From Bacilli bacterium (GTDB lineage Bacteria > Bacillota_I > Bacilli_A > RFN20 > CAG-826), in contig JBAZCS010000001.1 of NCBI GenBank assembly GCA_041654855.1, forward strand, positions 985 to 64,984: 64,000 bases of DNA, in the 5' to 3' direction. The position numbers and the translations under genes were made by a program. This document shows positions 41,014-46,385 of the stretch, piece by piece (within the stretch, counting starts at the first letter, position 1; each line of letters begins with the position of its first letter). The notes beneath the pieces are model-generated. The model saw only the letters and a list, made by a program, of their open reading frames with translations. It was not told where the DNA came from and ran no database searches.

Positions 41014-41023
41014 AATATAAAAA

Positions 41024-41749: not shown

Positions 41750-43480
41750 TTAACTTGTTTGTCGCGATGGGAAATTATTTAAGTTTGTCGCCCTTACCCC
41801 CACCGAATTTCCTAGGGTGTTATCAATATAAAAAGTTGAAGGATCAGTGAAGTAATAAACATAACCATTATTATTTGGATAGTCGAGCATATTGTAATAT
41901 GCGCTGCCAGCATACGTACCATCAAACTTTAAAATCGTCCGTTTGGGAACGTAGGTTTCATCCATTAAGTCTTCAAAATTACCGTTAGACATGCGGTAAG
42001 TGTAGTCGACGGCATCAATAAGACCGGCGTCTTCACCACCACTTTCATTAGTGCCGGAAAGCGTTAAATAGAAGAAGCTCGCACTCGTCGCCGCATATTG
42101 ACTTGAGGCGGCCACTAAAAATTCATAACCCGCACTAACCATTGTTTGTGGAATACGGAAGTCAAAATAAACACCAGTCCGGTTACCGACCGCAGCTTTA
42201 CTAATAGAAAAGCGCACTTCATTAAGATTCGTAATTGTTGTCCCATTACGTTTGAATTGATAAACAGAGATTGATTCATTATCGGCACCTTGGTTAAAAC
42301 GGAAGAAGGAAAGGCCACTCGTACCACCTTTTTTCGGCTTAAACCAAATTGAGTTACGGGGAGCGGTCATATTTGTGCCCGCTTCACTTGGGAGCGTTAC
42401 ACTATTACTCCATGTATTATTCGTGTTTCTTGTCGGCGGGTAAGTTGAAGCTAAAAGCACAGTCCTTGCAGTCCCGAGACTTCGCACTTGTTGATAACGC
42501 GCCCAAAACTCTTCATGGACTAAGGAAGCGTGATTAGCGTCAGTAATCGTTGTAATATTACTAGTCGTCGTTGTAATAACTTGGTTTTGGTTTTCCGCGA
42601 CTTCGACTAATGGATTATATTTAACAAAACTTGAGTTACTTGCATTAACAGAAGAAGTTTGGGTCGTTAAGCTACCCACGTAATAAGCACTGCCAATAAT
42701 GGAATTAGGGACGGCGACGGTGCTTGGGTAGTTGACGTTCGTAAATAAGTGACCGGGATAGTTTGGGTCGACAAGTAAATTACCGGCTACTCCTTGGTCA
42801 GGATTATCGGACCATGTAATATAAGGACCTAGCTTACCAATTAATGAATAATCGCTCGTTACTCGAATGGCACTTGGGCCTAAGGAAATCTTTGCATTTT
42901 TAACCCCAATTCCCTTTAATGTTCCGTTAGCGTATCCCGCAACAAGCCCGACATAGCTATTGTTAACTTTGTTTGAAACTTCAAGGTTTTCAAGATAAAA
43001 GTTTTGCGCCAAGCCGATAATTGGTGGTTCATCTTCAGTTGAACCTAAATTACCAAAAAAGCCGATTGAATTACCAACATCTACAATTTCAAAGTGGCTT
43101 GGTTTTTCTTTCCAATCAAGGGGATCACTCGATACCCATAAGTTTTTAAGCGTATAGCCATTACCGTCAAAACTACCAAGAAATGGGGCTTCGTCAGTGC
43201 CAATTGGGGGAATAGCACCGCTATGAATGTCTAGAAAGCCCGTTAATGAGCCTTTCATATCAATATCATTGCCAAGTTCAAAATATGTTTTTTCTGGACA
43301 GGCGCCGCTATTTTGCAGCCAGGAGAAGTTATATAGATGTTTTGGGGTGCGAATAATGTAGGGATCAGCTTCTGTTCCGGTTCCGCTTGCGTAATAGTTA
43401 CTAATTGAACTACCGGTCATTTTTGTGTTAAATTGCAAAACAGTCGTAAACCATGCCATTGTTGTCGTTACTAATGACAA
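41750..43480 (-). CDS. Large secreted/surface protein with a TasA/TapA-like SipW-cognate N-terminal motif (TTMAWFTT). The 5' end is out of frame with its coupled ATG.
   Basis: 576-aa ORF rich in N/T/S/G. MAWFTT parallels TWAAFND of TasA and SAAFHD of TapA. The ORF-track start is a TTG with no RBS. An AGGAG-coupled ATG at 43536-43534 is in another frame (see findings). Confidence 0.55.
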   Translation of the reverse strand: MSLVTTTMAWFTTVLQFNTKMTGSSISNYYASGTGTEADPYIIRTPKHLYNFSWLQNSGACPEKTYFELGNDIDMKGSLTGFLDIHSGAIPPIGTDEAPFLGSFDGNGYTLKNLWVSSDPLDWKEKPSHFEIVDVGNSIGFFGNLGSTEDEPPIIGLAQNFYLENLEVSNKVNNSYVGLVAGYANGTLKGIGVKNAKISLGPSAIRVTSDYSLIGKLGPYITWSDNPDQGVAGNLLVDPNYPGHLFTNVNYPSTVAVPNSIIGSAYYVGSLTTQTSSVNASNSSFVKYNPLVEVAENQNQVITTTTSNITTITDANHASLVHEEFWARYQQVRSLGTARTVLLASTYPPTRNTNNTWSNSVTLPSEAGTNMTAPRNSIWFKPKKGGTSGLSFFRFNQGADNESISVYQFKRNGTTITNLNEVRFSISKAAVGNRTGVYFDFRIPQTMVSAGYEFLVAASSQYAATSASFFYLTLSGTNESGGEDAGLIDAVDYTYRMSNGNFEDLMDETYVPKRTILKFDGTYAGSAYYNMLDYPNNNGYVYYFTDPSTFYIDNTLGNSVGVRATNLNNFPSRQTS

Positions 43481-43537
43481 AAAGGCAAGGGATGTTAGAA
43501 AGCCAAAATATACATTTGTCGTTTTCTTTTTTGCATT

Positions 43538-44257
43538 TTACACTCCTACGTAATACGTAATGTGATCAGCGTACATTACTTCCTTAATTGAATCAGCGCG
43601 AATATCATTTATATAATTCATGACGGGAACGTTATATTCAATAACAAACCACAATTCATTATCACTGTTTGATAAAGTAGTAAGCGGGATTCGTGTTTGT
43701 TTTACAGGATTAGGATTTAAACTAACAAACGAAGTAGTGTTCGCTTTGTTATAAGTTAAAGTGGCGGTTGACCAACCATTTGGTAACGATACAGGGTTAG
43801 CGCTTGTTAATTGAAAAACATTAGATGTAACATTTTCATCATACTCGCCGGCGCCGCTATGTCCGGTATGAAAAGCACCAGCGTTTGTTTTTGCATATAA
43901 GTAAACAGTACTCGTTTCGGTATATGTGAAGGTAATATGCACAACTAAGGCGCGCCGATATTGCGTATATTCAATATCTTGGGGATCAAAACGCGGCATA
44001 CGGACCGCCGGACTATTTTCAAAAGTATAACTATTTGTTGTTGACCCTTCATTAACGACCGTAACGGGGTAAACATTATAGGAATGAATTTGAAAGCCAG
44101 GAGCGGCAATTTCAATTTGGCGGGCAATAATTTGTGCGCGATTATTATTCGTAAACCACGCAAAAGTGGTAATTGTAAAAGAAGAGATCAAACCGATGAG
44201 AATAACGAAATTCAAAATAATAAGCGAAATTTTACGATTAAGAATTTTGTTTTTCAA
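43538..44257 (-). CDS. Secreted protein with a SipW-cognate-like signal peptide (TTFAWFTNNN), TasA/camelysin-like size.
   Basis: 239 aa. TTG start with an AGGAAAGGAAG RBS. N-region KNKILNRK, h-region ISLIILNFVILIGLISSF, then the T-x-A-W-F-T motif. Confidence 0.55.
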   Translation of the reverse strand: MKNKILNRKISLIILNFVILIGLISSFTITTFAWFTNNNRAQIIARQIEIAAPGFQIHSYNVYPVTVVNEGSTTNSYTFENSPAVRMPRFDPQDIEYTQYRRALVVHITFTYTETSTVYLYAKTNAGAFHTGHSGAGEYDENVTSNVFQLTSANPVSLPNGWSTATLTYNKANTTSFVSLNPNPVKQTRIPLTTLSNSDNELWFVIEYNVPVMNYINDIRADSIKEVMYADHITYYVGV

Positions 44258-44510: not shown

Positions 44511-44520
44511 TAAATGCCAA

Positions 44521-44594
44521 TGGAGCAGGTGACGGGAATCGAACCCGCGTATCTACCTTGGCAAGGTAGTGTTCTACCATTGAACTACACCTGC
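44521..44594 (-). tRNA. tRNA-Gly (anticodon GCC), CCA encoded.
   Basis: Reverse complement: GCAGGTG acceptor. GTTC/GAAC D-stem. Anticodon stem CTACC/GGTAG with loop TTGCCAA. T-arm GCGGG-TTCGATT-CCCGT. Discriminator T then CCA. Confidence 0.85.
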
Positions 44595-44717
44595 GTGCTG
44601 CCAATTATAATAACACTACTTTTATATAATTGCAATAAATGTTCTTTTATTTTCTATTTTTTCTGTTTAAAACGTAGTTTTATGGTATATTTAATATTGA
44701 TTAGTGAGGTATTTATC

Positions 44718-46385
44718 ATGCGTGAAAAACTTGCAAACTTAATCTTCCCGGAGATTAATAAAACAATTAAAGATTTAGAAAAAGAATATCCAAAAAGAAA
44801 ATTAATAGAAGGTGCGGAAGTAACGCGCTTTGCCCCGTCCCCTACGGGTTTTTTACACACCGGTAGTTTATTTACCGCCCTTGTGGCAAAGACTGTCGCT
44901 AACCAAAGTAAAGGAATTTTTTTTGTTCGCCTTGAAGATACTGATACGAAACGGGAAATTGCAGGAGCAGGGGAAACCTTACTAAAAGAGATGAACCTTT
45001 TTGATGTATTTCCTGACGAAGGTTATATGGGAGAAAAGGAAGAAGGGGTATATGGTCCTTATAAACAAAGTGAACGAGCGGCTATTTATAAAACAGTCAT
45101 TAAAGAAATGATTAAAGATGACTTAGCCTATCCTTGCTTTTGTACGAATCACGATTTAAGTGCCTTACGGGCGACCCAAGAAGCAAATAAAGTAGTGCCG
45201 GGATATTACGGTGCTTACGCGCGATGTAGTTTTTTAAGTGCGGAAGAAGCAATTAATAGAATTAATAATGGTGAAAATTATGTTTTACGTTTTCGTAGTA
45301 AAGGTAATCATGAGAATAAAATTAGTTTTAATGACGTTATTAAAGGCACGATTGAAATTGCCGAAAATGATCAACATATCGTTATTTTAAAAAGTGATGG
45401 CTTACCAACTTATCACTTCGCTCACCTTTGTGACGATCATTTCATGCATACGACACTTGTTACGCGTGGTGAAGAATGGATCAGCAGCGTTCCACTTCAT
45501 TTAGAACTCTTTAAAGCGCTTAAATTTAACACCCCGCGTTATGCGCATTTGCCCGTAATTAATAAACTTGATAACGGTAATAAACGCAAACTTAGTAAAA
45601 GAAAAGACCCCGAAGCCGCGGTTACTTATTTCCTAAACCTTGGTTATCCTATTAAAGCAATCCTTACTTATTTAATGAGTATCGCGAATAGTAATTTTGA
45701 AGAATGGTGGGCGGAAAATAAAAAAGCCCCACTTTCAGATTTTAACTTTAACTTATCACGGATGAGTGTTGATGGCGCGCTTTTTGATTTAGAGAAAGTA
45801 AATTTCTTTGCCCGTGAATATATTGCTTCCCTTACCGCCCTTGAAGTAAGTAAAGAATACATTGACTATTTAAAGTTTACCGGTGATAAAGCATTACTTA
45901 AACGTATTGAAAATGACTATGAACGGTTTACAAAAATTATGAATATTGAGCGGGAAAGCATTAAACCACGTAAAGACTACAGTCATTATGCGATGGTTTA
46001 TGACACCATTAAGTTTTTCTATAATGATGAATTTGAAAAGATAATTAATGAAGATAAAATTGAACCATTTAATGAAACATTAAATAAGGAAACAATCATT
46101 GCGTTATTAATCGCTTTACAAACTGATCTTAAATATGGCGAAGGTAATGAAGTGTGGTTTAATTCGCTTAAAGAAATAGCGACTAAAAATGGTTTCGCCC
46201 TGAATAATAAGCAATTTAAGAGTGATCCCGCGTCTTTTAAAGGGGTAGTCGCTGATGTTGCCGAAGTATTACGTATTAGTGTAGTCGGTGCGAAAAAAAG
46301 CCCAAATCTTTATGAAGTATTAACAATTTTAGGAAAAGAAGAAGTAAATCGGCGCCTAAATATAATAATGTTAAAGATAAAATAA
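44718..46385 (+). CDS. gltX: Glutamyl-tRNA synthetase (class I), atypical: HTGS in place of HIGH, ~35-aa N-terminal extension, 555 aa.
   Basis: RFAPSPTGFLHTGSL...FFVRLEDTDTKRE. KMSKS present as KLSKRK. C-terminal anticodon-binding block VVGAKKSPNLYEVLTILGKEEVNRRL. AGTGAGGT RBS before ATG 44718. The ORF-track start overlapping the tRNA is an artefact. Confidence 0.75.
   Translation: MREKLANLIFPEINKTIKDLEKEYPKRKLIEGAEVTRFAPSPTGFLHTGSLFTALVAKTVANQSKGIFFVRLEDTDTKREIAGAGETLLKEMNLFDVFPDEGYMGEKEEGVYGPYKQSERAAIYKTVIKEMIKDDLAYPCFCTNHDLSALRATQEANKVVPGYYGAYARCSFLSAEEAINRINNGENYVLRFRSKGNHENKISFNDVIKGTIEIAENDQHIVILKSDGLPTYHFAHLCDDHFMHTTLVTRGEEWISSVPLHLELFKALKFNTPRYAHLPVINKLDNGNKRKLSKRKDPEAAVTYFLNLGYPIKAILTYLMSIANSNFEEWWAENKKAPLSDFNFNLSRMSVDGALFDLEKVNFFAREYIASLTALEVSKEYIDYLKFTGDKALLKRIENDYERFTKIMNIERESIKPRKDYSHYAMVYDTIKFFYNDEFEKIINEDKIEPFNETLNKETIIALLIALQTDLKYGEGNEVWFNSLKEIATKNGFALNNKQFKSDPASFKGVVADVAEVLRISVVGAKKSPNLYEVLTILGKEEVNRRLNIIMLKIK

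Follow-up and report, generated by a model that had tools for sequence, protein, structure and literature searches.

Among the closest described systems are short adenine tracts at the 5' end of surface-protein genes. In vaa of M. hominis an A8 tract gives the ON state and A7 or A9 the OFF state, with switching at 1e-3 to 1e-4 (PMC524362), and in inlA of L. monocytogenes it is ON at A7 and OFF at A6, with polymorphism of the tract seen among strains and an A6-to-A7 reversion that was measured at about 5.5e-7 (PMC2831843). We analysed a stretch of 64,000 nucleotides (the window) in which a run of six adenines (A6) lies close behind the start codon of a gene, here called gene 2, whose long reading frame is out of frame with that start. 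A sequence-only reading of this DNA had placed the break in the A6 run and had proposed a slipped-strand phase-variation switch, with a recent inactivating frameshift or a sequencing error as alternatives. Our analysis indicates that the locus very probably represents an ordinary, recent and lineage-specific loss-of-function frameshift of gene 2, i.e., a fresh pseudogene, and that the lesion lies outside A6. The organism is apparently an uncultured, Mollicutes-like member of the Bacilli from anaerobic digesters (its relatives stem from biogas-fermenter samples and include an ADurb MAG).

Start junction and reading frames of gene 2

Gene 2 lies on the minus strand behind a smaller gene (gene 1), and the features that concern its start are the following:

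43538..44257, minus strand: gene 1, 239 aa, TTG start, N-terminal anchor or signal (...SSFTITTFAWFT...), intact in the window
43543..43547, minus strand: putative Shine-Dalgarno sequence AGGAG of gene 2 within the 3' end of gene 1, kept in L001-L013, L102 and L014
43534..43540, minus strand: coupling junction TAA-A-ATG, gene 1 stop plus native start of gene 2
43527..43532, minus strand: A6 run in the codons CAA AAA A (Gln2-Lys3-Arg4), T6 on the plus strand; native in-frame length, not the lesion
43504..43505, minus strand: the lesion according to the alignments, one A lost between two bases; common to L003/L101
43495..43536, minus strand: 13-codon remnant frame MQKRKRQMYILAF, closed by the stop at 43497-43495; residues 1-11 correspond to the true N-terminus of the gene 2 protein
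43495..43503, minus strand: GCT TTC TAA, a possible -1 leak site as read from the sequence
43478..43480, minus strand: TTG, first canonical start in the frame of the long ORF, without Shine-Dalgarno sequence
41750..43494, minus strand: remainder of gene 2 (residues ~13-595), out of frame with the start; NCBI MFA5485503.1
41079..41615, minus strand: downstream PgpA-like gene (Pfam PF04608, E 1.5e-18)

The minus strand of the window reads ...GTAGGAGTG TAA A ATG CAA AAA AGA AAA CGA CAA ATG TAT ATT TTG GCT TTC TAA CAT CCC..., with the TAA of gene 1 at 43540-43538, a lone A at 43537, the ATG at 43536-43534 and a spacing of 6 nt between AGGAG and ATG (AGGAG-N6-ATG). The long ORF, which extends down to 41750, is open back to the TAA upstream and shares its frame with the upstream gene. 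Every literal statement that the sequence-only reading had made on this region proved correct, i.e., the AGGAG, the TAA-A-ATG, the 13-codon dead end, the A6 and the long ORF in the adjacent frame. Its remark that the TTG chosen as track start is not preceded by a Shine-Dalgarno sequence was likewise borne out, as no purine-rich motif of this kind occurs in the 20 nt before TTG 43480, and none was found before the internal ATG at 43459 either. A product initiated at TTG 43480 would miss the basic n-region and most of the hydrophobic helix. In the NCBI annotation the broken gene appears as an ordinary hypothetical protein of 569 aa that starts at ATG 43459 (41750-43459), and not as a pseudogene.

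A single-base deletion downstream of the homopolymer

The closest homologue of the gene 2 product, P0001 (97% identical, 596 aa), begins MQKRIRQMYILGFLTS (in a longer stretch MQKRIRQMYILGFLTSLAFLSLV), which is the ATG frame of the window: it follows this frame through the A6 run and joins the long ORF after Leu11. The intact relatives share the N-terminus MQKR(I/K)RQMYILGFLTS, and this matches the "dead-end" peptide of the window. The two contigs that encode P0001, L001 and L002, originate from different SRA runs and both contain the TAAAATGCAAAAAAGAA of the window. They differ from it further downstream, having TATATTTTAGGCTTTC, with one extra base, where the window has TATATTTT-GGCTTTC. In the DNA alignment to L001, L002 and all loci of a second lineage of the species (lineage B), the ancestral TATATTTTAGGC with TTA for Leu11 stands against TATATTTT-GGC in the window. 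Position and nature of the lesion can thus be read directly from the alignment: one A is missing between 43505 and 43504, 22 nt downstream of the A6 run and in the non-repetitive context T4-A-GG. The claim that A6 puts the gene out of frame does not hold, as A6 is the in-frame length in 16 intact alleles and the break is found between 43505 and 43504. The intact ancestral state is documented by the 596-aa alleles P0001, P0067, P0068, P0070 and P0071 and by the 596-aa gene 2 of the sister lineage (L102), and the intact 596-aa alleles begin at the same ATG as found at the junction in the window; relative to this continuous ORF, the deletion of 1 nt leads to a stop after codon 13.

Over 8.8 kb of alignment with L001 (99.2% identity), the lesion is the sole indel that disrupts a reading frame. 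The other indels comprise an in-frame change of 3 nt at about 43213-43215, a pair in oppC in which one compensates the other, and an intergenic one at 41018. The first of these corresponds to a one-codon difference (43213-43215, minus strand), with SGAIPPIG in the window and L102 and SGATIPPIG in lineage B, and the intergenic indel, of 1 nt, is present in some contigs and absent from others.

Exactly the same A is missing in L003 (GCA_041676725.1), a MAG binned from JGI 3300015214, the source contig of which at JGI is L101. Over 3.5 kb, 10 substitutions separate L003 from the window (99.69% identity), and the two form lineage A. The two samples may belong to the same study or pipeline and could then share a systematic error. 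Since the deletion occurs in a second, non-identical assembly and no other indel breaks a frame within 8.8 kb, it is probably real rather than a sequencing error, as far as can be judged from assembled sequences. Ratios of pN/pS between the window and L001, albeit based on small counts, were 0.26 for gene 2, 0.24 for oppD and 0.05 for oppF, and the value of gene 2 close to that of oppD suggests that the inactivation is recent. The sequence-only reading had listed a recent inactivating frameshift among its alternatives, and this part stands, albeit with the site moved from 43527-43532 to the position between 43505 and 43504.

The scenario that we favour is as follows. Gene 2 would normally start at the coupled ATG at 43536 and be read straight across A6, and in the lineage of the window one A would have been lost from the TTA codon of Leu11. 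Translation from the native ATG would then end after 13 codons, leaving the other 583 codons without a usable start or export signal. The A6 itself would be an incidental outcome of Lys and Arg codons in the n-region of a signal peptide, encoded in an AT-rich genome. We infer that the cells do carry the mutation and that the shortened product has no function; the lack of a Shine-Dalgarno sequence before the TTG and the internal ATG and the loss of the anchor helix are both consistent with a loss of function.

The A6 run in related sequences

The run has a length of A6 in 29 of 29 species-level sequences, a survey that includes the window and many independent samples and compares consensus contigs. 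Within the species, the comparison of the tract that the sequence-only reading had recommended thus gave no length variation, an invariance observed directly in all 29. The exact context TAAAATGCAAAAAAGAA was found in all 13 loci first collected, and 16 contigs encode gene 2 intact at 596 aa, with the A6 run in frame. In the sister lineage A6 is absent: L102 has AAGAAAAGAAAA (also given as ATGAAGAAAAGAAAA) and reads ATG AAG AAA AGA AAA CGA CAA ATG TAT ATT TTA GGC TTT CTA, i.e., MKKRKRQMYILGFLTS, with the start MKKRKRQMYILGF. Among more distant orthologues, L014 carries an A7 elsewhere, L015 an A5 and L018 two runs of four (A4+A4). As the run is absent or different in orthologues, we regard it as a by-product of Lys/Arg codons of the n-region and not as a maintained element. 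Runs of this length are also common in the window (36% GC), which contains 127 A6/T6, 47 A7/T7 and 4 A8/T8 runs, and 8 of its 54 long ORFs have a run of at least six A within the first 45 nt.

That one A inserted into A6 yields MQKKKTTNVYFGFLTS... is correct as frame arithmetic. The notion that this A7 form represents the true N-terminus is contradicted by the relatives, none of which matches MQKKKTTNVYFGF..., their proteins starting with MQKR(I/K)RQMYILGF or MKKRKRQMYILGF. A programmed -1 frameshift of the dnaX or IS type at A_AAA_AAG was considered as well and rejected: the ATG frame reads CAA AAA AGA, which puts the heptamer out of phase, it is phased only with the target frame (GCA AAA AAG), and the intact relatives have one single ORF.

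A conserved pair of genes

With the A7-repaired gene 2 protein as query, 58 homologues were found, most of them 589-604 aa long and covering the whole query. Gene 1 orthologues of 239-250 aa are located directly upstream of gene 2 in L014, L015, L017, L018 and L102, and the pair is kept in relatives at 76%, 50% and 48% identity in differing neighbourhoods, with a gene 2 of 589-598 aa. Stop and start codons overlap as ATGA or TGATG (by 4 or 1 nt) in L014, L015, L017 and L018 and are separated by a gap of 1 nt in L102. The pair of ~240 and ~595 aa is therefore conserved and, judging from these junctions, predicted to be translationally coupled. The PgpA-like gene downstream is syntenic in close relatives and not in distant ones, which places it outside the conserved pair. 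A scan for promoters and terminators returned nothing above chance at the operon boundaries.

Upstream of gene 1, two observations concern the annotation and the assemblies. The 623-aa gltX ORF has a spurious 5' extension (44514-44720, plus strand) over a tRNA-Gly(GCC) gene on the opposite strand (44521-44594, minus strand), and since gltX of the relatives encodes 555-556 aa, its real start should be near 44718 (MREKLANLIF). Many independent Logan contigs (L001, L002, L013, L103-L116) reach no further upstream of gene 2 than about 1,013 nt, to around 44550, at or near this tRNA gene, which suggests a repeat or a strain-variable junction at about 44550.

Both proteins begin with a basic n-region and a hydrophobic helix followed by the invariant motif [ST][ST]xAWF[ST]. 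Gene 1 had been called a paralog of gene 2, and paralogy was indeed considered; what the two share is this N-terminal motif of about 29 residues (E 0.04), and the rest does not align, so that there is no detectable paralogy. The motif resembles TxAxF[ST]D, which we take to be of the SipW type. A SipW-cognate signal peptide of the TasA/camelysin type was not recognized by any NCBIfam model in either N-terminus (E<=10). Neither protein matched a Pfam or NCBIfam family, with no Pfam match on the gene 2 protein at E<=0.1.

The AlphaFold (AF2) model of P0001 (pLDDT 82.7, from an alignment of 33 sequences) places a helix at residues 2-33 and, behind a flexible linker, beta-rich domains, and this predicted helix indicates that the N-terminus lost in the window is the anchor or signal. 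The N-terminal domain is similar to PDB 3n6z from Bacteroides ovatus (Foldseek E 1.9e-5; profile E 3.4e-7 over residues 43-136), and the C-terminal half gave weak CBM-like matches only. Distant homologues of gene 2 carry GLUG (Pfam PF07581) or GH16 domains, and its N-terminal module is widespread, being present in Anaeroplasma, Coproplasma, "Tenericutes bacterium ADurb.Bin087" and MAGs of other Firmicutes. A scan of GTDB gave a best match of 58% identity and did not return the representative of this species itself. The model of the 239-aa protein was poor (pLDDT 55, 5 sequences), and a PDB profile search with it gave no match. The description that best fits these predictions is that of a beta-helix surface protein that is secreted or anchored by its N-terminus (gene 2), with a small partner (gene 1).

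Recurrent knock-outs across the species

A further position in gene 1 is of importance for the fate of the pair:

44159..44161, minus strand: TGG codon for Trp33 in gene 1; this W belongs to the AWF motif and is invariant in the alignment

In lineage B this codon is TGA in 24 of the 24 contigs that cover it (L001, L002, L004-L013, L103-L116), and gene callers report a fragment of 153 aa for gene 1. Genetic code 4 (TGA for Trp) was rejected: the window contains 114 in-frame TGG codons, and TGA is found in frame solely at the edges of ORFs or within antisense frames that do not code for protein. With the standard code 11 in use in the window, TGA at Trp33 is a nonsense mutation. Gene 2 has also been hit in lineage B, in which 10 contigs (L004-L013) have lost a C at 42148 (minus strand, CCA[C]AAAC), and this independent deletion splits gene 2 into pieces of 474 and 130 aa. 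With 51 indexed blocks in the collection, this allele is widespread and occurs in NCBI (GCA_050952685.1), JGI, ENA and Logan samples. L003, which has the lesion of the window, contains a private second deletion of 1 nt in gene 2 (TATA[A]TCC, at 42616 of the window, ~2420 in L003), and this suggests decay after the first hit, with the gene already dispensable.

Taken together, lineage A has an intact gene 1 and a frameshifted gene 2, lineage B has a broken gene 1 even where the 596-aa gene 2 is intact, and none of the 29 sequences of this species has both genes intact. Both are intact in the sister lineage (L102, gene 1 88% identical). Within about 1% divergence there are at least four independent knock-outs, namely Trp33 to TGA in gene 1 and the deletions of A at 43505, A at 42616 and C at 42148 in gene 2. 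A fifth, of the nonsense type, affects gene 1 in a different species, whose gene 2 has about 50% identity and in which L016 (GCA_028694035.1, ~1460) has GAAGAA>AAATAA and L015 (3518-3521) and L017, of the same species, have an intact gene 1. This pattern fits relaxed constraint on the whole module or selection against it, and if the two proteins act together, either would become dispensable once the other is lost. It is tempting to speculate, although we consider it rather unlikely, that in populations of anaerobic digesters selection has repeatedly favoured the loss of the module, e.g., as a phage receptor or a costly surface structure, and that the allele of the window might leak through U_UUC_UAA.

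The surroundings of the locus vary as well in three contigs of JGI sample 3300053716 (L006, L009, L010), where it is found beside genes for 406-aa HTH_38 (IS30-like) transposases or an inserted gene of 309 aa, and this suggests IS activity around the module.

Alternative explanations

Three other explanations have to be weighed against a recent loss-of-function frameshift. The A missing between 43505 and 43504 could be an error of sequencing or assembly, in which case the gene would be intact in the organism. The window is part of a MAG contig (MFA5485503.1, "Bacilli bacterium", 66,654 bp) of which only the consensus sequence was compared, the deletion allele occurs in just two MAG records, one of which (L003) bears an additional private 1-nt deletion, and exact-pattern scans of metagenomes, one for both alleles and one for the deletion allele, gave no further copies of it, although the pattern does match the loci collected here; the collection scanned evidently lacks these contigs. 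However, two assemblies with 10 further differences in 3.5 kb would have to carry the same error in a context that is not homopolymeric, there is no second frame-breaking indel against L001 in 8.8 kb, and other 1-nt deletions in gene 2 are clearly real, such as that of C at 42148 with its occurrence in JGI, ENA, Logan and NCBI data. The possibility of a sequencing error, which the sequence-only reading had raised, is thus weakened by the second MAG with its 10 differences, and we retain it as improbable. Less probable still, and in our view very unlikely, is that the frameshifted gene is nevertheless usefully expressed, be it by a -1 slip, by internal re-initiation or by reversion or transcriptional slippage from A6 to A7. 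A P-site tRNA-Phe could re-pair from TTC to TTT at U_UUC_UAA (43500-43495) and enter the frame of the long ORF (MQKRKRQMYILAFLTS...), and the product, ...ILAFLTSLAF..., would differ from the native protein by G12A only. TTG 43480 and ATG 43459 are candidates for re-initiation, second-site reversion from A6 to A7 is arithmetically possible (for inlA the rate is about 5.5e-7; PMC2831843), and gene 2 has so far not accumulated an excess of nonsynonymous changes. On the other hand, every orthologue is a single continuous ORF and none has a two-frame layout, A_AAA_AAG is phased with the target frame and not with the ATG frame, the internal starts lack a Shine-Dalgarno sequence and their products the anchor helix, and the second frameshift that L003 gained in gene 2 would be expected of a gene that was already dead.

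The switch proposed by the sequence-only reading, slipped-strand phase variation with A6 as OFF and A7 as ON state, is the least probable of all and appears extremely unlikely. Poly(A) switches at the 5' end are indeed known from comparable genes (vaa, PMC524362; inlA, PMC2831843), and an extra A would restore the frame arithmetically, but A6 is present in 29/29 sequences and A7 in none, 16 intact alleles have A6 in frame, which makes this length the ON state, orthologues do not conserve the run and its A7 product is unlike the N-terminus of any relative, A6 runs are commonplace in the window, and the OFF state is caused elsewhere. We therefore consider a recent frameshift between 43505 and 43504 as by far the best explanation.

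Significance

The chief value of this analysis is that of a correction: the eye-catching homopolymer is not the lesion, and a plausible "repair" of it yielded the wrong protein. With the lesion outside A6 and the repaired protein being wrong, there is no new phase-variation system to record. The database entry MFA5485503.1 (569 aa) describes a frameshifted gene with its 5' part cut off; natively, this gene begins at the coupled ATG (43536). A modest lead for the population genomics of surface-protein loss comes from the knock-outs of the module, which are both recurrent and reciprocal.

Comparison with known systems

The coupling of the two genes, as judged from the sequence, corresponds to that of other coupled two-gene operons, with a putative Shine-Dalgarno sequence in the upstream gene and stop and start that overlap or lie within 1-4 nt, and there is nothing unusual in this respect. 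The gene 2 protein matches the GLUG/beta-helix N-terminal domain of a "putative IgA1 protease" (PDB 3n6z, BACOVA_03286) by profile over residues ~43-136 and, as a model, by fold, and differs from it in that it has no Pfam GLUG match itself. Like the switches of vaa and inlA, the locus has a short A-run within codons 2-4 of a gene for a surface protein, and an A6/A7 toggle is arithmetically allowed. Unlike in these switches, the tract shows neither polymorphism in length nor conservation, the gene is ON with A6 and the OFF state results from a deletion outside any repeat. The premature-stop alleles of inlA differ from the window allele in that the lesion lies outside a homopolymer in the latter, and its organism is an uncultured one represented by a MAG. 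They resemble it in their other features: a 1-nt indel near the 5' end leaves no more than a few residues of a secreted or surface protein, the species has intact alleles beside broken ones, and the same locus has been knocked out several times independently. Both are examples of surface-protein genes that are inactivated in some strains by frameshift or nonsense alleles.
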